Shown: positions 7,206 to 52,167 of the stretch, piece by piece
Layout: each line of letters opens with the position of its first letter
Numbering within the stretch: the stretch's first letter is position 1
Assembly: GCF_003018235.1 (NCBI RefSeq)
Contig: NZ_CP027437.1
DNA from: Escherichia coli
GTDB taxonomy: Bacteria; Pseudomonadota; Gammaproteobacteria; Enterobacterales; Enterobacteriaceae
Reading direction: 5' to 3' (one strand)
DNA: 64,000 nucleotides
Notes under the pieces: generated by a model
Seen by the model: only the letters and a program-made list of their open reading frames with translations
Database searches by the model: none
Told to the model about the DNA's origin: nothing
Made by a program: the position numbers and the translations under genes

Positions 7206-7739
7206 ATCTCCTCCAGGTAAGTCGGGTACGACCTGGCTTACCTCTTTCGCTCTCGTCAGAATTCCATCAAGATTAATTGCTAAAAAGCGTGCTAAAGAAA
7301 GAAGATCGTTATCGGCGAACGGGCCGATCACTCATGCAGGAAGCATAGATCCTTTGAGCGGAGTTTCTGATATCTGAGGAGTGCGAAATGCAATTGAGCA
7401 GCAGTGAACCTTGCGTGGTGATCCTGACCGAAAAAGAGGTAGAGGTAAGCGTTAATAACCATGCCACGTTTACCCTTCCGAAAAACTACCTGGCCGCCTT
7501 CGCGTGCAACAATAACGTCATTGAACTCTCAACGTTAAATCACGTATTAATCACCCACATCAACCGCAACATCATCAACGATTATCTGTTGTTTTTAAAT
7601 AAGAACTTAACCTGCGTAAAGCCCTGGTCGCGGCTGGCTACCCCGGTTATCGCTTGTCATAGCCGTACACCGGAAGTGTTCCGGCTAGCCGCCAACCACA
7701 GCAAGCAGCAACCCAGCAAACCCTGCGAAGCGGAGTTGA

Positions 7740-9810
<2,071 letters not shown>

Positions 9811-10151: not shown

Positions 10152-10198
10152 AATGGCGCGCCCTGCAGGATTCGAACCTGCGGCCCACGACTTAGAAG
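10152..10198. other. Prophage attachment-site copy: 47 bp identical to the 3' portion of argU (partial tRNA, not a functional gene)
   Basis: Exact 47-nt match to 52089-52135 (reverse complement of the tRNA-Arg 3' end including acceptor stem and T-arm); sequence diverges on both sides. Confidence 0.85.
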
Positions 10199-10620
10199 TT
10201 CCTAGAACGACATTTTAAGTCAACAAATTACCGCGCCATCTCTGCGCTCACACGTCCCACTACCTCAAAACATGTAAAGCCTTGCAAGCCATTGTGAGGC
10301 CTTATGTGTCTCAGTTTTGTCCCTCTTTTTTGTACTAAAAAACATAGTAATTGAGGATAAACCTCATGCTATTTTCGCTTATATGCCTCTAAAGGCATGG
10401 CACTTAAATAGATAAAAGCACCACAAAAGCATAAAAAACCACACAGTAAAACCGCAATATGAAACAATAACAGATAATTAAACCAAAAACAGATAGCGCA
10501 TTGTGATAATCATTCAATACTAAACAAAATATAAACAGTGGAGCAATATGTAATTGACTCATTAAGTTAGATATAAAAAATACATATTCAATCATTAAAA
10601 CGATTGAATGGAGAACTTTT

Positions 10621-36731: not shown

Positions 36732-37094
36732 TCATTCATTCCCCAGTTCGGTGATGGTCAGCTCCAGCTTCCCACCTTTGGTAACGGGCATCTTCACAAC
36801 ACGGTAATCAACGACCTGAACATCATCCAGCCAGAAACCTGCTTTGGTGAGTGCGTCAAAAGCGGCTTTTTGCAGATTATCCAGGTCACGGCGACGGCGA
36901 TCCGGCATGTGGCACTCAATACGGATTTTCACAGGCATAGCCAGGCCGATATCCAGCATTGCGTTTTTAATGATTTGGGCGACGTTATCGCGGTATGCCT
37001 GCCCCTCTGCGCTGACGTGCGTGCGCCCGCGATTATGGCGGTAATAGCGATTATTGCTCGGAGGCCAGGGTAATGTGATGCTGTAGGTATTCAC
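36732..37094 (-). CDS. rusA: Holliday junction resolvase RusA
   Basis: 120-aa ORF, near-identical to RusA as recalled ([23 protein letters not shown]…). Confidence 0.9.
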
Positions 37095-37381
37095 GCCTTA
37101 ATAACCCCCTCTTTCAGCCAGATAACCTGTGTTCTCGCCATACCTTCCAGCGCGCATTCTTTTGCATATCCAGCGTCAACAAAATGCGTGCGACGGTCGA
37201 TCTCATCGTGACAGGCAGAACATGCAATGGTGGCAATCAGGTCTGGCGGTTTGGTACCGGTGCCACACAATCCAGCCAGCCGGATATGTGCCAGTACAGA
37301 CGTTTCAGGGTTGCCATTACATATGCCAGGGATTCTTACCTGGCATTCCCGACCACGCGCTGCTTTTCTCAAATCAGCCAT
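37091..37381 (-). CDS. ybcO: YbcO-like nin-region protein
   Basis: ORF overlapping rusA start; Cys-rich motif; matches DLP12 YbcO. Confidence 0.7.
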
Positions 37382-37541
37382 GATTCCTCCTTGCTGCCAG
37401 TCGCAACCATTTTTTATCAACCAGGCTGGCGGTATACCCTAGCAGCGTTGGTATTTCGGATGGCTTCAGCTCAGGCTTACGCTTACGACGATTTGGTACT
37501 CTGTAGATGTGTCCGTTCATGACCCGAATAAGCGGTGTAGT
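37374..37541 (-). CDS. ninE: NinE-like protein
   Basis: 55-aa basic ORF in the conserved nin order. Confidence 0.55.
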   Translation of the reverse strand, partial: TTPLIRVMNGHIYRVPNRRKRKPELKPSEIPTLLGYTASLVDKKWLRLAARRNHG

Positions 37542-37543
37542 CA

Positions 37544-37999
37544 TTACGCCTCCTGCTTGTCGCGCAGCAGCTGGAACTCGCAGCTCTGTGGAATAGTCAG
37601 GTGGCAACCAATATTCATCGCCCAGGCTTCAACCTTACACAGGAAGACATACATCTCTCCGGTATCAAGATCGGAGGTATGGCGTAACGACTGGATAGTG
37701 GTGATATCACCGGTTACGACATCAACCAGGTCTTTGGTTTCATAACCGAGATATGTGTGTTTGAGAGCATCTTTTACCCAAGCTGGAGTGGCGAACGTTT
37801 TACCCCTGCTGATGAGGTATTCACTGATTTCGCTGTACCACATGTGGCTGAGTGCATTCTGGGAAAGACTGCGTCTCTCGCGCCACGGTTTAAGCACCAT
37901 GCGAAAGCATTTGCCGTCCTCCAGATAAGGCTGGATCTGCCGACCGATAGCGGTGAAGTTACCGCGATGCAATTTGATACCATCTTGTGGGAGGTTCAC
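37544..37999 (-). CDS. ybcN: YbcN-like nin-region protein
   Basis: 151-aa ORF matching DLP12 YbcN as recalled. Confidence 0.7.
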
Positions 38000-38191
38000 G
38001 CTTCACCTCCGCAGAGATCAAACGCTGGATGCAAAATATCGCAGGTGCATTTCTGCATCTGTGAATGGAGAAGAGAGGTTGGATTGTATGTGCGCATAAA
38101 CGTCCCCGTTTAGCGCAGAAGTCACCGGAGGAGTTCAAACTCTGGTGACTTAATTATGGCAAGTTGATTGTTGAAAATCAATTTAGTGGAT

Positions 38192-38974
38192 TTAGGCGCA
38201 ATACAAAGGATCATTAGCAGCTCTAATACCGCCCTGAATCGCAAGCCCTGTATGGCAATTTGACATTGAGCATGATTGCCATCTGTGCAAGGGACCTCCA
38301 TTAATCGAAACTTCCAGCAGATCTTTATCTCCTTTCATCCTGACCCCTTCATACAACATATCAAGACGCTCAACAATCAATCCTGTTGGAGGTTCCATTT
38401 TTAGAACGAGGGCAAACTCTCCTGGCCCACGTCGTATTGTTATACGCGGGCCGGTACACTCCACATCCCAATTGTCTGATTTAGCTTTCCATTCATTTTC
38501 ATCTATCAGTAAAGTCTCCTTACCAATAGAATTACAGAAAATTCCTGATAAAAGCATCGGTCCATGTGGTATGGGTGAAGGTTTCACAGAAAGAATGGGT
38601 TGTTCGTTGACTACAATCAAATTTTGACAGTTATGAAACGTCACTCCTGCAAATTTTACTGTTATAGGCTCATTATGAAAATCAAACATTTCATTTGCAA
38701 AACCAGCCTGTAAGCACTTGGGATTTCTGTCAGCTATTTCCACTGTCTGTGCTGAAAGTCTACCACGAGCTCTTTTTTGATTGCATTGGGAGCAAAGAAG
38801 TGTCATTCCATTCGGATCATGTACTTTGGCATCAACGAAGTCAGGTTTAAAATGCTCATAATCATAAAATCCAAATCCACAAATTACACAGCCAAAGCCG
38901 CACCTTTGCCTTATCTGACGTTTTATTGTCTCAGGTATTCTTCTTGAGAGCCCGTGTTTATTAATATTGTCCAT
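38192..38974 (-). CDS. Hypothetical protein with N-terminal HNH/His-Me-finger nuclease motif and uncharacterised C-terminal domain (260 aa)
   Basis: CGFGCVICG…YEHFKPDF…HDPNGMTLLCSQCNQKR fits the CxxC…(D/E)H…N…CxxC(N/H) HNH pattern; AT-rich gene flanked by non-coding spacers. Confidence 0.55.
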   Translation of the reverse strand: MDNINKHGLSRRIPETIKRQIRQRCGFGCVICGFGFYDYEHFKPDFVDAKVHDPNGMTLLCSQCNQKRARGRLSAQTVEIADRNPKCLQAGFANEMFDFHNEPITVKFAGVTFHNCQNLIVVNEQPILSVKPSPIPHGPMLLSGIFCNSIGKETLLIDENEWKAKSDNWDVECTGPRITIRRGPGEFALVLKMEPPTGLIVERLDMLYEGVRMKGDKDLLEVSINGGPLHRWQSCSMSNCHTGLAIQGGIRAANDPLYCA

Positions 38975-39148
38975 ATGGTTAGTACGCTATAAGTTTGTTT
39001 CTATAATTTTACCACAATAGATAAGTTTGTATCAGAAATCGCTATATGGAGTGAGCGGAATATTTATATTATTCATGCAATTGCTCTCCCGTACGCAGCC
39101 CGCACTTCCGTCATCGCAGAATGACGGAAGCCTTACTAACTAGCGCCT

Positions 39149-39472
39149 TTATTGAAACAGATTCTGAGGTAAATGCGGCAATACTCGACTCCACTTATCA
39201 TCCTGCCACGGCTGAAGTTTTACATGTGCCGTTTCTCGGACGAGGATTGCTCGCGCTCTGTTGAGTATCTGGGGATATTCTTGCTCGATGGAAGTGAAGT
39301 GACCAGCTTCACCATGCTCCGCATCCTGAAGAAGATGAGTAACGTTCTGGTAGGCAATTAACATCACATTCCCTGCTCGCCATAACCAGGCGAGTGTGCA
39401 AAGTTCGTTATCAGTGAATTGTTTTGTGATTGGGGATTGTTGAACTGCTAGAACGAGAACGCCAGCATCCAT
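39149..39472 (-). CDS. Hypothetical protein (107 aa), no recognisable motif
   Basis: ATG ORF in the AT-rich cargo region between ybcK and the HNH-like gene. Confidence 0.45.
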   Translation of the reverse strand: MDAGVLVLAVQQSPITKQFTDNELCTLAWLWRAGNVMLIAYQNVTHLLQDAEHGEAGHFTSIEQEYPQILNRARAILVRETAHVKLQPWQDDKWSRVLPHLPQNLFQ

Positions 39473-39583
39473 TGGCAGTCCCTATAGTAAAACCATAGCT
39501 CAGGACGCTTCGTTCAGGATAGATAATTTTATTGTACTTACCTAACTTTCTTACTATAGCACGGTTGAAAAAGTGATTATTAC

Positions 39584-41110
39584 TCAAAAATAAACCTCAC
39601 CATCAACCATATATTTGAGAGTACTTATCGCCTGCCGGGCGGATATTGTTTTCATTAAAGGATAGTGTTTAAAAACAATGCCATTCATAAAATAGATATC
39701 ACAGGTTTTATTATCTGTATTGATTATGATTTTTTCGAATGTTTTATAGGCAAGTGTACGACATAGCTCTCGCCCATTTTTACTGGTTAAGTCAATAGCA
39801 TGAAAATCACCAAGTGAGCTCACCGCTTTACTCTTCAAAGTTTTTAATGATACAGAAGCCCTTCGTAATTCCTTATCTAATACTCTGATTTTTTCTGCTA
39901 TAGCGGTAACTTCAGGCGCAACAGATAATGCAGCAATTAAATTATTAATTTTCATATGGAGCTCAATAATTCTCAACTCTAAAGTTTCATTAGCATCTTT
40001 CTTGTTTTCAACTGGTTGGATTTTACTACAATTAAAAAGCAACTCATTAATGATATTATAATCAACCAAATCTCTCTTTATTGATGGCCTGCCACATCGA
40101 TGCAGTCTTCTCATCGGACAAACATAATAGCCATGCAAACTTCCAGATACCGCATGAACAATCATGGTATTACCACAAGCCTCGCACTTCATAACTGTTC
40201 GAAGTAGATTTATCAACATAGGATTTTTGCTACTATTGCTAATACCAAAAGGTGCCAACCGAATTTCCTGCACAGCGTAAAACAAATCATCTGATATGAC
40301 TCTGGGATAATAGCCAGCGATTTCACTTATTCCTTTACCTCTTGCACGATATGAAGGTACGCATATACCTATCAGAGCTTTATTCGCTAATAATTTTTCA
40401 ATTACAGAAGGCCCCCATGCACTTTCTTTTCCTGAGAAATTCTTTACAGCATGATCATTTAAATACTTGGCTATTGCATTCAATGAGCGCCTTTCCATCC
40501 TGAGTTTAAAAATTAGCTCAATAGTTTTCACCCTGTCGGGGTCTGGAACAAAAGCCGTTCTTTTGTCATCTAAGGAGAGCCATCTCGGACAAGACGCCGT
40601 CATAATCGTACCTGATTCCAGTGCATCCTGCCGTTTTTTCTTCCATGATAATTTAACCCGACTTGACTTTATCTCGCTTTCTTCATTTGCCCTTTGTGCT
40701 ATAAGTATGGCTTTTATTAATGAATATGGCTCATTCAAAGAGTCAATATTATAGACTGTATTGTCGCAAAGAGTTATAACATCAATACCGTGATTCAAAA
40801 TCAATTTCAGACGTTCAATCGCTTCACCGACTTTTTCTCTTGAAAGTCTGTCCAGACTTTCAACTAACAATGTAGTTCCTGGCAATATATAACCATGCTC
40901 TATAGCATCTAAAAATTCCGAAAAAGCTCCTGATTGTGCATGCTTTCCTTTGAATGCACTTAATCCTAAATCTTCATATGTTATGGTATCAAGATAATAA
41001 TCACTATTTACCTTTAACCATTCAGCAATAAGTCTTCTCTGTCGGTTTAATGAGTCGCCAGACATCTGACCTGGTGATGAAAATCGCATATATGCTATGG
41101 CTTTTTTCAT
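39584..41110 (-). CDS. ybcK: Large serine recombinase (YbcK-like, 508 aa)
   Basis: N-terminal resolvase catalytic region (AIAYMRFSSPGQ…SLDRLSR) and C-terminal Cys-rich zinc ribbon; size equals DLP12 YbcK. Confidence 0.8.
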   Translation of the reverse strand: MKKAIAYMRFSSPGQMSGDSLNRQRRLIAEWLKVNSDYYLDTITYEDLGLSAFKGKHAQSGAFSEFLDAIEHGYILPGTTLLVESLDRLSREKVGEAIERLKLILNHGIDVITLCDNTVYNIDSLNEPYSLIKAILIAQRANEESEIKSSRVKLSWKKKRQDALESGTIMTASCPRWLSLDDKRTAFVPDPDRVKTIELIFKLRMERRSLNAIAKYLNDHAVKNFSGKESAWGPSVIEKLLANKALIGICVPSYRARGKGISEIAGYYPRVISDDLFYAVQEIRLAPFGISNSSKNPMLINLLRTVMKCEACGNTMIVHAVSGSLHGYYVCPMRRLHRCGRPSIKRDLVDYNIINELLFNCSKIQPVENKKDANETLELRIIELHMKINNLIAALSVAPEVTAIAEKIRVLDKELRRASVSLKTLKSKAVSSLGDFHAIDLTSKNGRELCRTLAYKTFEKIIINTDNKTCDIYFMNGIVFKHYPLMKTISARQAISTLKYMVDGEVYF

Positions 41111-41364
41111 GGTGACACCTGCTAACGTATGCTTTTATAAACCTTAGTGGCGAGATATAATTTTTGTTTAATTTTTATTTAAAAAGACAATTAAGGTCAC
41201 ATTATCTTGAATATACAACAATAATCGTATTGCAATTTTCTTACGCCATAATCTTGAAAGCACAAAAGAATACATAAAAAATAAAGACATTAACAAAAAG
41301 CATAAAACGAGGCTCATATAAATATAAGAGCCTCCATATTTTAGTCGTTTAGAAACAAATTATT

Positions 41365-41697
41365 TTAATGTGGTGTGCTTCGTGACAATAAATTAATAAC
41401 CAACACACCGGCACAAATCAACATCATGCCTATAATGGCTGGCAGGTCCAGCCGTTGGCCGAAAAATCCCCATGACAGTAAGCTAATCAGGACAATACCG
41501 ACTCCTGACCAGATAGCATAAGCAATCCCTGTAGGAATATAAGCCAGCGTCTGAGCTAATAACCAGAATGATGCACAATAACAAATAATTGTACCAACAG
41601 ATGGCCATAACCGTGTAAAACCTTCTGAAAACTTCATTAAGGTTGTACCAATGACCTCTGCAAGTATTGCACCACCAAGATAAATATAAGGATTCAT
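41365..41697 (-). CDS. emrE: SMR-family multidrug efflux protein EmrE
   Basis: 110-aa four-TM protein starting MNPYIYLGGAILAEVIGTTLMK; matches EmrE. Confidence 0.9.
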   Translation of the reverse strand: MNPYIYLGGAILAEVIGTTLMKFSEGFTRLWPSVGTIICYCASFWLLAQTLAYIPTGIAYAIWSGVGIVLISLLSWGFFGQRLDLPAIIGMMLICAGVLVINLLSRSTPH

Positions 41698-41764
41698 AGC
41701 ATATTCTTTCCTGTTCAAACTGGAGAGAATTGTACTACAGTTTGAACTCAACTCACCTGTTTCA

Positions 41765-42067
41765 TCATTGTGTACCCATTGATGTTCTTTTATATACCCT
41801 CAATACCCGTTTCATCGCGGCACTCTGGCGACACTCCTTAAAAATCAGATTCGTGCTCACCTTTCCTTCCCGTTCTTCTCTGGTAGCGAACCGGTAATAC
41901 ACCGTTCGCCAGACCTTACCATCAACGACCAGGATTCCTGCCCGCGCCATTTTAGCCGCAGCCTGATTTATGCTGGTTACGGTTGCGCCTGTTACCGCGG
42001 CAACGTCCTGTGCACAGAAGCTCTTATGCGTCCCCAGGTAATGAATAATTGCCTCTTTGCCCGTCAT
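41765..42067 (-). CDS. Ren-like protein
   Basis: 100-aa ORF immediately downstream of P, the position of lambda ren. Confidence 0.5.
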   Translation of the reverse strand: MTGKEAIIHYLGTHKSFCAQDVAAVTGATVTSINQAAAKMARAGILVVDGKVWRTVYYRFATREEREGKVSTNLIFKECRQSAAMKRVLRVYKRTSMGTQ

Positions 42068-42765
42068 ACACTTGCTCCTTTCAGTCCGAACTTAGCTTTG
42101 ATTTCTGCGATCTTCGCCAGAGCCTGTGCACGATTTAGAGGTCTACCGCCCATGACAGGAAGTTGTTTTACTGGTTCAGGTATCGCCTCACCACGGTTAA
42201 TTCGCGCGGTCATACAGGACAGTTCATCGGCAGCCTTGCGCCGTAATTCCGCGTCAGTCAACGCATTGGCCCGCATGTTCTGATACAGGTTGGTAACCAG
42301 CCAGTAGTGCGCGTTTGATTTCCACGGATAAGACTCTGCATCCGGATACAGACCACGCTTCCGGCAATACTCGTAAACCATATCAACCAGCTCGCTGACG
42401 TTTGGCAGCCCGGCGGTAACGGATGCTTCTTCCCGGCACCATGCAACAAACTGCCCGGGTGATGGCAGAAATGGTCTATTCTGCCGACGGGCAACACGCA
42501 TTCCGGCGCTCACCTGTTCCATCGTGGTGATCCCGTTTTCCCGGAAAGCCAGAACCCACTGGCGGCGGATTTCGTTCAGTTCGTTCTGGTCACGATTAGC
42601 CAGGCTCGCCGGGAAAGTTGCCAGTAACTGGCTGAATACACCGTTGATTATCTGCGCTACCTGCTGTACCTGCGGCTTTTCGTCGTACTGTTCCGGCATG
42701 TTGTTGGCGATCCGACGCATCTGCTCACGGTCAAAGTTAATCATCTGTGCGGCGATGTTTTTCAT
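42064..42765 (-). CDS. Replication protein P (DnaB helicase loader, lambda P-like)
   Basis: 233-aa ORF following O; length and sequence consistent with lambda P. Confidence 0.8.
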   Translation of the reverse strand: MKNIAAQMINFDREQMRRIANNMPEQYDEKPQVQQVAQIINGVFSQLLATFPASLANRDQNELNEIRRQWVLAFRENGITTMEQVSAGMRVARRQNRPFLPSPGQFVAWCREEASVTAGLPNVSELVDMVYEYCRKRGLYPDAESYPWKSNAHYWLVTNLYQNMRANALTDAELRRKAADELSCMTARINRGEAIPEPVKQLPVMGGRPLNRAQALAKIAEIKAKFGLKGASV

Positions 42766-43781
42766 AGATCCACCCCGTAAATCCAGTCTGTGTTTGTCAG
42801 GTCGAGTTTTGGTTTGCTAGCTGTCACGCCTGCCTGTTGCTTGTTACGGTTGATTTCGAGTTGGGTCCACTTGTCGCGGAGTTTGGCCGGACTTAGCACG
42901 TTACCGGACCAGAAGTTGTCCTGGCATGCCCAGCGGAACAGCACGCACATGTCGCGGTGGTTACGTCCGTCACGTTCACGCATCAGGCGGATATCGTTAG
43001 CCCACCCTGCAAAATTCGGTTTTCTGGCTGATGGCGCGATGGTCTTCACCATGTCAAACATCCACTCTGCGGCGGTCAGGTCTTCTGCTGTCCCCCACTT
43101 GCTGCCGCTCTGAATTGCAGCATCCGGTTTCACCACAGGAAGATCGTTTTCTGGTTGGTCAGAGGATTCGCCAGAATTCTCGGACGAAAAAGGTTTTATA
43201 TTGTCTTTTGTTAGTTTGTCTTTTGTGTTTACCTGATTCGGGTAAACGCCTTTACCTGATTTGGGTAAACTTTTTTTACCTGATTCAGGTAAATTTACCT
43301 CTTTCAGGTAAACTTTATTTTTCTTACCTGATTCGGGTAATGTTGACCATTCACTGACCACATTATTAATGCCGGTATTCCGCCCGCTCTGAATAAAAAT
43401 CCCACGCTTTACCAGAACACTTTTTGCAGCAGAACACTTGTGCGGCAATATCCCGGTTAATTCGGAAAGTTGCTCGTTGCTAACCCAATCCAGTTTTTTA
43501 TTAAAGCCATATGTTTTGCGCATGACAGCCAGAAAGACCAGAAGCTGGTGCTGTGTTAATCCGGCCAGCATCACAGCTTCCAGCAACTCATTTGCAATGC
43601 GCGTATAACCATCATCGAGATCTGCCACGCGCGGCTCCTTTTGTGCCGCATCCGGCACTGGAAAATTGAATATCTCAGCAGTGTTTGCCATAATTCCTCC
43701 CGCAATGAGTGTGTTACGATTTGCACCTGAAAGTCGGTTCTGTTCCAGCAGACCGGCTTTCGCCATTTCTGAACCTGTCAT
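42762..43781 (-). CDS. Replication initiator O, with ori iterons embedded in the coding sequence
   Basis: 339-aa ORF; the internal repeated peptide LPESGKK corresponds to the DNA iterons. Confidence 0.8.
   Translation of the reverse strand: MTGSEMAKAGLLEQNRLSGANRNTLIAGGIMANTAEIFNFPVPDAAQKEPRVADLDDGYTRIANELLEAVMLAGLTQHQLLVFLAVMRKTYGFNKKLDWVSNEQLSELTGILPHKCSAAKSVLVKRGIFIQSGRNTGINNVVSEWSTLPESGKKNKVYLKEVNLPESGKKSLPKSGKGVYPNQVNTKDKLTKDNIKPFSSENSGESSDQPENDLPVVKPDAAIQSGSKWGTAEDLTAAEWMFDMVKTIAPSARKPNFAGWANDIRLMRERDGRNHRDMCVLFRWACQDNFWSGNVLSPAKLRDKWTQLEINRNKQQAGVTASKPKLDLTNTDWIYGVDL
43229..43341. repeat. Replication origin iterons: five ~19 bp direct repeats (TTACCTGATTCGGGTAAAC-like, each internally palindromic)
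   Basis: Copies at about 43229, 43251, 43277, 43295 and 43323, inside the O gene as in lambda ori. Confidence 0.8.
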
Positions 43782-45479: not shown

Positions 45480-46553
45480 ATGGAGAACTTAATGGATACT
45501 TTAAAATATGAGAAATTCTCTGATTTTGATCACAATGACCCATTTTTTGACTCTTTAAAAAAAGATTATAAAGAGTTTCCTCTTTGGTTAGAAAAAAAAG
45601 CCAGAGAAGGAGAATCAGCTTATGTGCTCTATGATGACAAGCATAAAATCGAAGGTTTTATGTATCTAAAAGAAAATGATGATGCAAATGACATTAATCC
45701 AGCGCTCCCACCAGGACGTCATCTAAAGATAGGAACATTCAAATTTGAATCTAAAGGCACCCTTCGCGGACAACGATTTCTAAAAAAAGCGTTTGACCAT
45801 GCATTTTCATCAAAATCTGATGATATTTATGTTACTGTTTTCGACAAACACGTCCATCTAATAAAACTTTTCCAAACGTACGGATTTTACATTCATGGTG
45901 AAAAAGAAACACATAACGGGAAAGAGTTTGTATATGCGAGGTCTTTGCATGAGCCTTATGGTGATATTTTATTAGATTACCCTCGAATAATGACATCAAG
46001 GGCCAACAAATATTTACTGGCGATTTATCCCGAATATCACACTAGACTATTCCCTGATTCAAAACTTGTAAATGAATCACCAGATATTGTCAAAGATATA
46101 TCCCATGCTAACAGCATTCATAAAATTTACATATGTGGAATGCGTTCTGTGATGGGAATGAAAAGAGGAGATATCATTGTCATCTATAGAACCGGAGACA
46201 AAAAAGGGCCAGCTCGCTATCGTTCTGTAGCCAGTACATTATGTGTAGTTGAGAGCGTAAAAAATATTTCTGAATTTTTAAGCGAAGATAGTTTTGTAGA
46301 CTATTGTATTCGTTTTAGCGTATTTTCTGAAGATGAACTCAGAAAAATCTATAAAGAACGTCGATACCCTTTCATTATAAGATTCACATACAATCTGTCT
46401 TTGCCAAAGAGACCCAATCGTGCTATTTTAATAGATCATGTGGGGCTAAATGGTTCGCGTGCATTCCGATGGAGTCACTTTAAACTCACAAATGAGCAGT
46501 TCTTAAAGATCATCGAGTTAGGCAAGATAAATGAAAGTTTTATTATCCATTAA
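45480..46553 (+). CDS. Hypothetical two-domain protein: N-terminal GNAT-like acyltransferase fold, C-terminal PUA/ASCH/EVE-like domain (357 aa)
   Basis: Pattern resembling GNAT motifs (…IGTFKFESKGTLRGQRFLKKAFDHAF…LIKLFQTYGFYIHG…); C-terminal half has a KRGDIIVIYRTGD segment reminiscent of PUA-like beta barrels; strongly AT-rich. Confidence 0.5.
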   Translation: MENLMDTLKYEKFSDFDHNDPFFDSLKKDYKEFPLWLEKKAREGESAYVLYDDKHKIEGFMYLKENDDANDINPALPPGRHLKIGTFKFESKGTLRGQRFLKKAFDHAFSSKSDDIYVTVFDKHVHLIKLFQTYGFYIHGEKETHNGKEFVYARSLHEPYGDILLDYPRIMTSRANKYLLAIYPEYHTRLFPDSKLVNESPDIVKDISHANSIHKIYICGMRSVMGMKRGDIIVIYRTGDKKGPARYRSVASTLCVVESVKNISEFLSEDSFVDYCIRFSVFSEDELRKIYKERRYPFIIRFTYNLSLPKRPNRAILIDHVGLNGSRAFRWSHFKLTNEQFLKIIELGKINESFIIH

Positions 46554-46908
46554 GCCTGAGTTTGCAGAAAAAATATTGAACGGAACAAAGCGGTTCGAGT
46601 TTCGTAAAGGTATATTCAAAAATCCGCAAATTAGCACCGTTGTTATTTATGCCACGATGCCATTAGGTAAAGTTGTTGGTCAATTCCGTATTGAATCAAT
46701 ACTAAGTGACGAACCGGAATCTCTTTGGAAAAAGACGGAAAAACACGCAGGTATTTCTAAGCAATTTTATGACTCATATTATTCAGGTAGAGAAAAGGCC
46801 TACGCAATAAAAATTGGTGAAGTGGAAAGATATAAAGAACCAATTCCTATCTCTGCTCTAGGTAGTAATATTAAGCCACCACAATCATATCTTTACCTAC
46901 CTGCGTAA
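46531..46908 (+). CDS. ASCH-domain protein (125 aa)
   Basis: MKVLLSIKPEFAEKILNGTKRFEFRK… is the characteristic ASCH N-terminal beta strand/helix signature; overlaps the preceding gene by 23 nt. Confidence 0.6.
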   Translation: MKVLLSIKPEFAEKILNGTKRFEFRKGIFKNPQISTVVIYATMPLGKVVGQFRIESILSDEPESLWKKTEKHAGISKQFYDSYYSGREKAYAIKIGEVERYKEPIPISALGSNIKPPQSYLYLPA

Positions 46909-50713: not shown

Positions 50714-51056
50714 GGCCTGTCAGTTTCTTAAGATATCCAGACCAACCGCCACCAACTGGATACGAACAGGCCGCCTACAGGCAACACGTAAAGATCCAAC
50801 CAAGTCAAAATCTCCTTACCTCACAACACGGCAAGCCTGCATTGCGGCGCTTCAGTCTCCGCTGCATACTGTCCAGGTGAGCGCGGGTGATGGCATAACA
50901 GAGGAAAGAAAATGTCACTCTTCCGCAGAAATGAAATATGGTATGCCTCGTATTCGCTCCCGGGCGGGAAACGAATTAAGGAATCTCTTGGCACAAAGGA
51001 CAAGCGGCAAGCTCAGGAGTTGCACGACAAGCGAAAAGCAGAACTCTGGCGAGTAG
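50685..51056 (+). CDS. xis: Putative excisionase (Xis), overlapping int start; C-terminal extent uncertain
   Basis: HTH-like N-terminus ([26 protein letters not shown]) immediately upstream of and overlapping int. Confidence 0.5.
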
Positions 51057-52075
51057 AAAAGCTAGGGGATTTACCTGATGTCACTTTTGAAGAGGCCTGC
51101 CTAAGATGGCTTGAGGAAAAAGCTGATAAAAAATCTCTCGATTCAGATAAAAGCCGGATTGAGTTCTGGCTTGAACATTTTGAGGGTATAAGGCTTAAAG
51201 ATATCTCGGAGGCAAAGATTTACTCTGCTGTAAGCAGAATGCATAACAGAAAGACGAAAGAAATATGGAAACAGAAAGTTCAGGCCGCCATCAGGAAAGG
51301 TAAAGAACCGCCTGTTTATGAACCAAAGCCAGTATCAACTCAGACAAAGGCAAAGCATCTTGCCATGATAAAGGCCATTCTCCGTGCTGCAGAACGCGAC
51401 TGGAAGTGGCTGGAAAAAGCGCCTGTCATCAAGATACCAGCGGTCAGAAACAAGCGAGTCAGATGGCTGGAAAAGGAGGAAGCAAAACGCCTTATTGATG
51501 AGTGCCCCGAACCACTGAAATCTGTCGTCAAGTTTGCGCTGGCAACTGGTCTGAGAAAGTCGAACATCATAAATCTGGAATGGCAACAAATCGACATGCA
51601 GCGACGAGTTGCCTGGGTGAATCCAGAAGAGAGCAAATCAAACCGCGCCATTGGTGTGGCGCTGAACGATACCGCCTGTAAAGTGTTGCGTGATCAAATA
51701 GGCAAGCATCACAAATGGGTGTTTGTACATACCAAGGCGGCTAAGCGAGCAGATGGAACATCAACGCCTGCGGTCAGGAAGATGCGCATCGACAGCAAGA
51801 CATCATGGCTATCAGCTTGTCGTCGTGCAGGAATTGAAGATTTCCGTTTCCATGACCTCAGACACACCTGGGCAAGCTGGCTGATTCAGTCAGGCGTCCC
51901 ATTATCAGTGCTTCAGGAAATGGGCGGATGGGAGTCCATAGAAATGGTTCGTAGGTATGCTCACCTTGCGCCTAATCATTTGACAGAGCATGCGAGGAAA
52001 ATAGACGACATTTTTGGTGATAATGTCCCAAATATGTCCCACTCTGGAATTATGGAGGATATAAAGAAGGCGTAA
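50912..52075 (+). CDS. int: Tyrosine integrase (lambda Int family; DLP12 IntD-like)
   Basis: 387-aa ORF with C-terminal catalytic signature (…[15 protein letters not shown]…VRRYAHL) adjacent to argU. Confidence 0.92.
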
Positions 52076-52090
52076 CTGATTGAATTGTAA

Positions 52091-52167
52091 TGGCGCGCCC
52101 TGCAGGATTCGAACCTGCGGCCCACGACTTAGAAGGTCGTTGCTCTATCCAACTGAGCTAAGGGCGC
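52091..52167 (-). tRNA. argU: tRNA-Arg (anticodon UCU)
   Basis: Reverse complement reads GCGCCCTTAGCTCAGTTGGATAGAGCAACGACCTTCTAAGTCGTGGGCCGCAGGTTCGAATCCTGCAGGGCGCGCCA: cloverleaf with TCT anticodon and CCA end. Confidence 0.93.

Follow-up and report, generated by a model that had tools for sequence, protein, structure and literature searches.

The serine recombinase gene ybcK and the accessory cargo beside it in a DLP12-type prophage of Escherichia coli

Why would a prophage that already has a tyrosine integrase at argU also encode a large serine recombinase beside a variable cassette of accessory genes? This question is raised by a stretch of Escherichia coli DNA of 64,000 nucleotides (NZ_CP027437.1; the window), for which an earlier note had suggested that the recombinase belongs to a nested element or mediates exchange of the adjacent cargo.

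The prophage is 41.9 kb long and is delimited by a 50-nt att repeat at positions 10152-10201 and 52089-52138. The genes on which the argument depends are as follows.

38192-38974, minus strand: 260-aa cargo gene (PHROG 6544, unknown function, E 2e-141)
39149-39472, minus strand: truncated antirepressor gene, 107-aa open reading frame (Pfam P22_AR_C, the P22AR C-terminal domain, E 1e-13)
39584-41110, minus strand: ybcK, intact large serine recombinase of the integrase type, 508 aa (Pfam, PHROG, AlphaFold model)
41168-41317, minus strand: ylcJ, hydrophobic small protein of 49 aa (Pfam YlcJ, E 2.4e-35; RefSeq name ylcJ)
41365-41697, minus strand: emrE, SMR multidrug efflux transporter, 110 aa (Pfam Multi_Drug_Res; RefSeq name emrE)
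41765-42067, minus strand: ren (PHROG 142, Ren-like), whose 3' end holds the right border of the cargo hotspot
50912-52075, plus strand: tyrosine integrase of the prophage, adjoining argU (Pfam Phage_integrase, E 5.5e-47)
52091-52167: argU, tRNA-Arg(tct), beside the tyrosine integrase gene

The nin-region location and the second, tyrosine integrase at argU were both read correctly in the earlier note: ren, P, and O lie upstream of the ybcK-emrE position, and ybcN, ninE, ybcO, rusA, and Q lie downstream. The interval 39584-41697 had been described as ybcK and emrE, and both genes are present, but it also holds a third gene, ylcJ, which that description left out. ylcJ and emrE are directly upstream of ybcK, and all three genes sit between ren and ybcN; RefSeq uses the same three names in genomes that are ∼99% identical across the region. 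The gene order ren-emrE-ylcJ-ybcK and its spacing are constant in 77 of 77 loci, with no case of inversion or relocation. An Rfam search of positions 37000-43000 returned zero matches, and no PADLOC defence model matched any of the seven proteins tested.

The recombinase and its gene module

Three Pfam domains follow one another in YbcK, namely Resolvase (PF00239, residues 4-161, E 7.7e-19), Recombinase (PF07508, residues 191-284, E 2.2e-14), and Zn_ribbon_recom (PF13408, residues 302-357, E 2e-7), which bears out the earlier description of a 508-aa serine recombinase with a resolvase region and a zinc ribbon. The protein also matches PHROG 95 ("integrase", E 2.5e-119). Across 17 homologues, R9, S11, Q15, and the ESLDRLSR segment at residues 84-91 (including D87, R88, and R91) are invariant, as are the zinc-binding residues C309, C312, C331, and C339. 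The AlphaFold2 model (pLDDT 79) gives full-length matches to serine integrase-att complexes (Foldseek, best E 3e-19) and contains a helix at residues 128-166 (the long alpha-E), a helical domain at 191-284, and long helices at 346-430, in which a coiled-coil motif is predicted only. A catalytic domain, a recombinase domain after alpha-E, and a four-Cys zinc ribbon, the attributes of a large serine recombinase, are thus all present in YbcK.

The same domain order (catalytic domain, alpha-E, recombinase domain, and zinc ribbon with an embedded coiled coil) is found in the Bxb1, PhiC31, A118/LI, and TP901-1 integrases. YbcK shares the catalytic Ser/Arg and the four Cys with phage serine integrases and matches them over its full length in Foldseek (E 3e-19 to 4e-11), although sequence identity is only 14-20%. 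It differs from them in its setting, as ybcK is inside the prophage, ∼11 kb from the nearer att end, with no attP or attL/attR identified and no known RDF, and the phage of the window integrates through its tyrosine integrase. A prophage-borne serine recombinase catalytic domain is also found in PinE, PinQ, and PinR of E. coli cryptic prophages. Small serine invertases are ∼190 aa in length, have a C-terminal HTH, and act on inverted repeats that enclose tail-fibre segments. Inversion of prophage DNA is reported for PinQ, and the class is distinguished by having neither recombinase nor zinc-ribbon domains (PMC12529663). An assignment of YbcK to the small invertases (Pin/Gin/Hin) was rejected on the basis of its 508-aa length, its recombinase and zinc-ribbon domains, and the constant orientation of its surroundings in the 77 loci. 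Inverted repeats in the region around ybcK occur at the level expected by chance.

Eight ybcK alleles were compared; all eight are free of stop codons, and dN/dS is 0.06-0.14 at a dS of 0.10-0.18. Purifying selection of this strength implies that the ybcK product does something. The module is carried by 1426 of 5426 complete E. coli genomes (at least 80% of it is present in 1399), with one or two copies of ren-emrE-ylcJ-ybcK per genome, and it also occurs in viable isolated phages, Perceval, 4A7, and Turner among them. These data show that YbcK is a complete integrase-type large serine recombinase that is kept intact by selection; judged by its residues and its model, the protein looks functional. 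We found no functional study of YbcK in the literature.

The presence of ybcK beside emrE in a lambda-like prophage is an already known, ordinary feature. YbcK of the K-12 cryptic prophage DLP12 is the orthologue (dN ∼0.013 between K-12-type alleles and the gene in the window), and DLP12 has the same ren-emrE-ylcJ-ybcK order in the same hotspot upstream of ybcN-ninE-ybcO-rusA. Unlike cryptic DLP12, the prophage in the window is full length between its att repeats, and it carries the truncated antirepressor gene and the 260-aa gene downstream of ybcK where DLP12 carries ybcL-ybcM.

Three non-coding features accompany the genes of the module.

39473-39583, minus strand: non-coding tail of 111 nt, a constant companion of ybcK (comparison of loci)
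41309-41335, minus strand: stable hairpin with a trailing U run, between emrE and ylcJ (-15.5 kcal/mol, z -2.8)
41713-41747, minus strand: emrE-leader hairpin, from the ren stop to the emrE ribosome-binding site (z -0.8, not significant)

The tail occurs in all non-K-12-type loci, with a diverged version in the K-12 type. It contains an extended -10-like element, TGCTATAGT, which is oriented toward the cargo and may act as a promoter. The RNA fold of the tail is not significant (z +0.8), and no dyad-symmetric site stands out in it in repeat and fold scans. The hairpin at 41309-41335 looks like a terminator for emrE, and in its predicted fold the GGAGG and AUG of ylcJ are buried. EmrE itself matches PF00893 (Multi_Drug_Res) over residues 3-94 (E 2.1e-35), which places it by sequence in the SMR family and agrees with the efflux gene noted earlier beside the recombinase.

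Borders, junctions, and candidate recombination sites

The cargo beside ybcK had been called variable, and among 80 related loci at least nine cargo types are found downstream of the gene. The antirepressor remnant in the window aligns with the last 324 nt, on the 3' side, of the full-length gene (705 nt) found in a cassette without ybcK. The 260-aa cargo gene is found in 12 of the 80 loci; its product has a weak N-terminal HNH-like match (PHROG 7785, E 5e-4) and no match in Pfam or PADLOC. On the side away from ybcK, the cargo ends at two adjoining elements.

38119-38151, minus strand: conserved hairpin, leader of the sORF-ybcN operon (80-nt fold of 38102-38181 including the border palindrome, z -2.1)
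38153-38181, minus strand: left hotspot border, promoter-like TTGATT-17 nt-CATAAT (promoter scan; homology break)

All 10 informative comparison loci, whether ybcK is present or absent, lose homology to the window at 38181-38184, and the border element at 38181 is common to 13 cargo types. The right border is inside the 3' end of ren, at 41800/41801, where four cargo types diverge after ...AAACGGGTRTTG. Both borders are identical in cassettes that contain neither ybcK nor emrE, and the ybcK-less cassettes found there encode GNAT/Arc/Ant, DUF4145, DUF4041, a 472-aa unknown protein, and others. Because the borders are unchanged in these cassettes, they belong to the hotspot and not to the recombinase; related genomes therefore have the conserved junctions that the earlier note had called for, but these do not depend on ybcK. 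The conserved flanks and the many unrelated inserts that share these borders make the ren-ybcN gap a moron hotspot. It resembles the hotspots of P2/P4 temperate phages, which also have conserved flanks and many alternative cassettes (PMC9122126), and differs from them in its position between ren and ybcN of DLP12-type phages; a description of this gap as a hotspot under that name was not found in the literature. Some of the cargo (SIR2, HEPN) is a candidate for defence, as judged by domain names. The plus strand at 38164-38181 forms a palindrome, TTGATT-N6-AATCAA, which was rejected as a recombination site, as it has no common central dinucleotide and also flanks recombinase-less cassettes; it reads as the -35/-10 promoter of the ybcN operon.

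Where the cargo meets the ybcK side, the junction differs among loci, with 324, 317, 312, 304, 220, 174, or 0 nt of the antirepressor remnant kept. A simple deletion between the short direct repeats CTATC and CCATC accounts for the O157-type junction, and insertions of IS1, IS2, IS3, and IS66 are present in the interval. In one case (H160) 79 nt of the tail stand alone, as the result of an IS1-mediated deletion.

No att-like repeats flanking 38.0-41.8 kb were detected in a repeat search, and neither blastn (word size 7) nor tblastx found a flank duplication or duplicated gene fragments at the cassette borders. The module and cassette borders have no conserved repeats, dyads, or duplications, a lone attP-like site being unrecognisable from sequence alone, and no repeated site was found between cargo units. 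Further candidates for a mobile unit or its sites were considered and rejected. The best flanking pair (I7, an inverted repeat with 16-nt arms at 38131-38146 and 41734-41749) has a constant right arm and an inconstant left arm; the latter falls within a hairpin loop whose sequence is shared solely by a near-identical locus (L001) and is different in all eight other types compared, ybcK-bearing or ybcK-less. An inverted repeat around the ybcK open reading frame (I9, 39568-39582 and 40995-41009, 14/15 matches) was rejected since ∼0.5 such pairs are estimated to occur by chance per 5 kb of AT-rich DNA. A 229-bp DUF1367 duplication around the recombinase in one locus (L019) could be taken for a target duplication, but it is unique to that locus and is part of a 4.3-kb SIR2 cargo insertion. 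Finally, the recombinase gene alone has no fixed ends as a mobile unit, as homology across contexts ends at the stop codon and its beginning precedes the start codon by 10, 40, 59, or 68 nt, depending on the comparison. Across the 77 loci, the element was seen neither at a second target nor in the opposite orientation.

Origin of the block and exchange of the cargo

The ylcJ-ybcK block has a GC content of 0.25-0.36, compared with 0.49 for the prophage. A chromosomal relic beside fliE has emrE, ybcL, and ybcM contiguous and lacks ylcJ and ybcK; against this relic, the block in a phage copy is a 2.1-kb indel that separates emrE from ybcL. The relic retains ∼130 and ∼70 bp of nin-backbone sequence and the emrE-leader hairpin, which is kept together with emrE at both loci; the hairpin between emrE and ylcJ belongs to the missing segment. 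The indel junction is non-conservative, with 17 bp at the fliE locus replaced by 2096 bp in the K-12-type phage locus, and with a divergence of 8-10% between the two loci, insertion and deletion are indistinguishable. The clean insertion of a nested element would leave hybrid junctions, but neither indel junction retains B-half sequence.

Homologues of YbcK with 50-59% identity and the same length are found at outer prophage ends in Atlantibacter, Yersinia, Erwinia, and viral contigs. The genes for these relatives are outermost, after tail-fibre and chaperone genes, whereas ybcK of the window is internal; they read outward, have a GC content below that of their flanks, are preceded by accessory cargo (for example UmuDC or an autotransporter), and have a fixed module end with unrelated DNA beyond it. 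In one clade of them (L118-L120) a conserved 67-aa open reading frame follows, which has no equivalent after ybcK, and the module stops where unrelated or host DNA begins. Divergent relatives (42-60% identity) occur in further lambdoid phages, again in the nin region and beside variable cargo (for example SIR2, colicin immunity, KGG, and DinI), a recurrence that suggests something beyond a one-off accident. Taken together, the sequence comparisons support the view that ylcJ-ybcK is a discrete, foreign-looking unit. The earlier proposal of a nested element therefore holds for a foreign, discrete, low-GC 2.1-kb indel with relatives at prophage ends, and fails for flanking repeats and a conservative junction.

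The reading that we favour, with a probability of roughly 55%, is that emrE-ylcJ-ybcK is fixed accessory cargo in a DLP12-type hotspot and that the neighbouring cargo is exchanged by ordinary mosaicism without YbcK. The block would sit as a fixed unit with ren on one side and the sORF-ybcN operon on the other and would not be a currently mobile nested island. Its low GC, the 2.1-kb indel, and the prophage-end relatives suggest that it was originally the integrase-proximal end of a different temperate element and came to lie inside through illegitimate or relaxed homologous recombination. The cargo would be swapped through recombination in the conserved DNA that borders it, in ren/P or ybcK at one end and in the ybcN leader at the other, with the shared antirepressor remnant possibly serving as a further recombination stretch in cargo replacement and with local deletions and IS insertions probably contributing additional variation. 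We favour ordinary flank recombination because the borders are independent of ybcK, the junctions are heterogeneous, att repeats were not found, and the order is fixed. Experiments have demonstrated that lambdoid phages recombine with defective prophages, the DLP12 nin region included, by relaxed homologous recombination of the Red/Rad52-like type (PMC3945230), and mosaicism of this kind can explain the exchange here. YbcK itself would still recombine conservatively, by attack of Ser11, 2-bp staggered cuts, and subunit rotation at two sites of ∼40-50 bp, and these sites would differ from the borders of the cargo interval and be invisible in the sequence.

The next alternative, which we consider possible though unlikely, is that a phage or island encoding the recombinase once entered between emrE and ybcL and was mostly deleted, leaving ylcJ-ybcK and an attR-like end as its now immobile remains. 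The contiguity of emrE, ybcL, and ybcM at a fliE locus that retains some nin backbone fits this history, as do the low GC of the block and the outward-reading relatives at extreme prophage ends. It is also consistent with the end of the ybcK module: in E. coli, two independent types of junction (one with the antirepressor remnant, the other with K-12 DNA upstream of ybcL) both place this end ∼105-111 nt past the stop codon, as an old att junction would be expected to appear. However, there are just two such junction types, and the non-conservative indel junction and the divergence of the two loci leave its direction undecidable. A remnant should also decay, yet all eight alleles are intact, dN/dS is ∼0.1, and most of the module persists in 1399 genomes.

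It is improbable that YbcK and an attP-like site in the 111-nt tail or the upstream leader constitute a second integration system, used at a secondary site or in resident prophages when argU is unavailable. The complete integrase-type architecture with its predicted coiled-coil motif, the conserved non-coding tail, the selection on ybcK, and the relatives in integrase positions would all suit such a system. On the other hand, among 30 genomes evenly sampled from the 1426 and 80 viral contigs, the module invariably occupies an internal position and its tail is broken solely by IS elements, no prophage permuted at the nin region was observed, and the tail has no prominent dyad-symmetric site.

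Less probable still is that YbcK-family recombinases actively capture and swap adjacent accessory genes, as an integron-like device for phages: family members from three lambdoid clades and from prophage ends do always adjoin variable accessory genes (emrE, UmuDC, DinI, KGG, SIR2, colicin immunity, autotransporter), and E. coli ybcK is followed by its many cargo types, but the hotspot borders are common to cassettes without a large serine recombinase, the ybcK-side junctions are heterogeneous, cargo units are not separated by a repeated site, the border palindrome has no common central dinucleotide, the variable start of homology upstream of the gene leaves no fixed element ends, and the DUF1367 duplication is confined to one locus.

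Nothing in the loci compared shows YbcK moving its neighbouring cargo, and the earlier suggestion that the recombinase mediates this exchange is not borne out: the borders are shared with ybcK-less cassettes, the ybcK-side junctions are heterogeneous, and the module is never inverted. YbcK may nevertheless have an undetected role in cargo capture or secondary integration.

The favoured reading of emrE-ylcJ-ybcK as fixed cargo leaves the understanding of lambdoid cargo exchange unchanged. A long shot is that YbcK-family large serine recombinases are a selected, recurrent part of enterobacterial phage accessory hotspots (nin and tail-distal), where they might act through an as yet undetected site to capture foreign DNA ends or integrate phage into phage; if true, the family would be a driver of cargo gain and not a passenger. 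YbcK is also possibly a source of a new integrase tool. For E. coli itself, the comparison shows that emrE, the gene of a textbook efflux pump, exists as two diverged copies: a chromosomal relic beside fliE that lacks ybcK and gives the best match in 2285 genomes, and a phage-borne allele that is almost perfectly linked with ybcK (1407 genomes, compared with 1426 for the ybcK module, of 5426).

Gene content of the ybcK–emrE interval

The genes of the ybcK–emrE finding were already part of the E. coli K-12 annotation, and their description in the earlier note, as nin-region genes of a prophage with a tyrosine integrase at argU, was right in every particular by gene calls, Pfam, RefSeq and the att repeat. 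RefSeq also gives the names ybcK, ylcJ and emrE (genomes ∼99% identical over the region). The surroundings are those of a lambdoid early-right operon, with O, P and ren upstream and, in order downstream, a truncated antirepressor gene, a 260-aa gene, a 33-aa sORF, ybcN, ninE, ybcO, rusA and Q.

Features of the interval and its prophage
10152-10201 and 52089-52138, prophage ends, a 50-nt repeat of the argU 3' end
38119-38151, conserved hairpin, after the promoter-like site of the left border
38153-38181, left border element, palindrome TTGATT-N6-AATCAA; on the transcribed strand, promoter-like TTGATT-17 nt-CATAAT (-35/-10)
38192-38974, 260-aa cargo gene, PHROG 6544 (function unassigned in PHROG)
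39149-39472, truncated antirepressor gene, downstream of ybcK
39584-41110, minus strand, ybcK, 508 aa, Pfam Resolvase, Recombinase and Zn_ribbon_recom
41168-41317, minus strand, ylcJ, 49 aa, matches its own Pfam family
41365-41697, minus strand, emrE, 110 aa, SMR family match
50912-52075, tyrosine integrase of the prophage, adjoins tRNA-Arg

The 260-aa protein has no match in Pfam or PADLOC; its N-terminal 70 residues, in which CxxC motifs occur, give a weak HNH-like match. Apparently this gene has a separate promoter-like site, and the gene upstream of it is followed by a hairpin. The GGAGG ribosome-binding site and start codon of ylcJ, which encodes a hydrophobic peptide, lie inside a stable hairpin (41309-41335, z -2.8) that also resembles an emrE terminator; this arrangement is similar to that of a translationally masked small membrane toxin. 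Elsewhere in the prophage (45480-46908), two overlapping genes follow the cI-like repressor gene directly downstream and on the same strand; one encodes 357 aa with no Pfam match, the other a 125-aa ASCH-domain protein. Lambda has rexAB at roughly this position, so the two genes may serve in exclusion or defence.

YbcK as an enzyme

YbcK is a bona fide, selected large serine recombinase of the integrase type. Across 17 aligned members of the family, at 42-61% identity, the invariant positions include the RFSxxxQ catalytic motif (R9, S11, Q15), ESLDRLSR at 84-91, the residues of alpha-E and four cysteines of the zinc ribbon. The AlphaFold model (mean pLDDT 79) has a catalytic domain, the long helix alpha-E, a recombinase domain built of helices, the strands of a zinc ribbon and, at 346-430, long helices. 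Over its full length, Foldseek aligned it with cryo-EM and crystal structures of att-bound serine integrases, Bxb1, PhiC31 and A118 among them (E 3e-19 to 4e-11).

All eight E. coli ybcK alleles compared were full length, with pairwise dN/dS of 0.06-0.14 at dS of 0.10-0.18. Of 5426 complete E. coli genomes, 1426 carry the module, at one or two copies per genome, and isolated phages have it as well. ybcK is no decaying pseudogene, and the sequence evidence all points toward a working enzyme.

Borders and turnover of the cargo

The window was set against annotated loci of E. coli and against 80 viral contigs. Between ren and the sORF-ybcN operon lies a general cargo hotspot, which can also hold recombinase-free cassettes (GNAT/Arc/antirepressor, DUF4145, DUF4041, HEPN, NADAR, YajG lipoprotein and uncharacterised genes). 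On the left, homology stops at 38181 (±3) in all informative loci; on the right, 41800/41801, within the ren 3' end, is the break point for four cargo types. In the whole 64-kb window, the left-border palindrome pattern has a single occurrence. Its cargo-proximal TTGATT arm was kept at 13 of 13 intact cargo ends, with a decayed copy at the fliE-locus relic, and its distal arm has a few variants. The 6-nt spacer changes with every cargo type and is constant within one type. Because cassettes share these borders whether or not they carry ybcK, the borders must be attributed to the hotspot itself.

The earlier note had proposed that the recombinase exchanges the adjacent cargo or belongs to a nested element. 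The first proposal finds no support in the borders common to ybcK-less cassettes, in the heterogeneous junctions on the ybcK side, or in the ren-emrE-ylcJ-ybcK order, which was constant, with no inversion, in all 77 loci extending upstream. At the ybcK-side junctions the antirepressor remnant is kept for 324, 317, 312, 304, 220, 174 or 0 nt, and in the O157 type the junction arose by deletion between CTATC and CCATC. Repeats bracketing the interval were looked for in direct and inverted orientation, as were duplicated fragments, and none turned up. A DUF1367 duplication in one locus, considered as a target duplication, was rejected as part of a separate cargo insertion. We found no evidence that YbcK defines a nested mobile element today or swaps neighbouring cargo.

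The simplest account of cargo turnover is relaxed homologous recombination plus deletions. Phage Rad52-like recombinases have been shown experimentally to build such mosaics, the DLP12 nin region included (PMC3945230). A full-length version of the same antirepressor gene is present in ybcK-less cassettes and offers a homology stretch usable for exchange. Several of the compared loci contain IS elements.

YbcK relatives and origin of the module

The module is in part a foreign insert; GC content is 0.36 in ybcK, 0.25 in ylcJ and 0.49 in the prophage. In the E. coli CP66-6 chromosome, emrE-ybcL-ybcM are contiguous between fliE and yedF (L012 3262-5415, 90-92% identity; emrE, here a second, diverged copy, 92%), flanked on both sides by short nin-backbone stubs and adjoined by IS1. 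Where this locus has 17 bp, phage cassettes of the K-12 type carry 2096 bp that comprise ylcJ, ybcK and flanks. This junction is unlike the product of conservative serine recombination, and it may have arisen by insertion or by deletion. The best emrE match was the phage-type allele in 1407 genomes, nearly the number of ybcK carriers, and the fliE-type allele in 2285 of 5426. About 500 genomes have more than one emrE copy and presumably hold phage and chromosomal alleles together.

Different lambdoid phages carry relatives (60% and 42% identity) in their nin regions, beside DinI, KGG, SIR2 or colicin-immunity genes. SOS- or stress-type neighbours recur beside YbcK-family genes (UmuD/UmuC, DinI and KGG; loci L024, L109, L118-L120, L019, L023, L026 and L114-L117); beside E. 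coli ybcK, the neighbour is emrE. In a Citrobacter koseri contig (L020, ∼7690-7810), the heptamer CTTGTTT is repeated ∼20 times in tandem immediately upstream of the gene for a YbcK homologue (49% identity). The repeats adjoin a divergent protein of 555 aa that matches Shufflon_N faintly, the context is plasmid-like (TraD/MobA), and the tract could be phase-variable. Between contexts, conservation is limited to the recombinase ORF, from 10-68 nt upstream of the start codon to the stop codon, which looks like a gene selected within a highly recombining region rather than fixed element ends.

Homologues with 50-59% identity (Atlantibacter, Yersinia, Erwinia and viral contigs) are found at the outer prophage end, reading outward after tail-fibre and chaperone genes, with cargo such as UmuDC or an autotransporter ahead of them. 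One such clade has a conserved unit made up of the recombinase and, ∼200 bp downstream, a 67-aa acidic ORF.

L118 5938-6141, L119 11732-11935 and L120 11733-11936 (loci of this clade), 67-aa acidic ORF

The conserved block stops at the stop codon of this ORF, exactly where unrelated DNA starts; at one of these loci, the next long ORF resembles a host aldehyde dehydrogenase (by eye, N-terminal sequence). The ORF has no Pfam match and may encode a recombination directionality factor. The outer prophage end occupied by these relatives is the position of true integrases, and YbcK most probably came into the hotspot as the integrase end of a different element.
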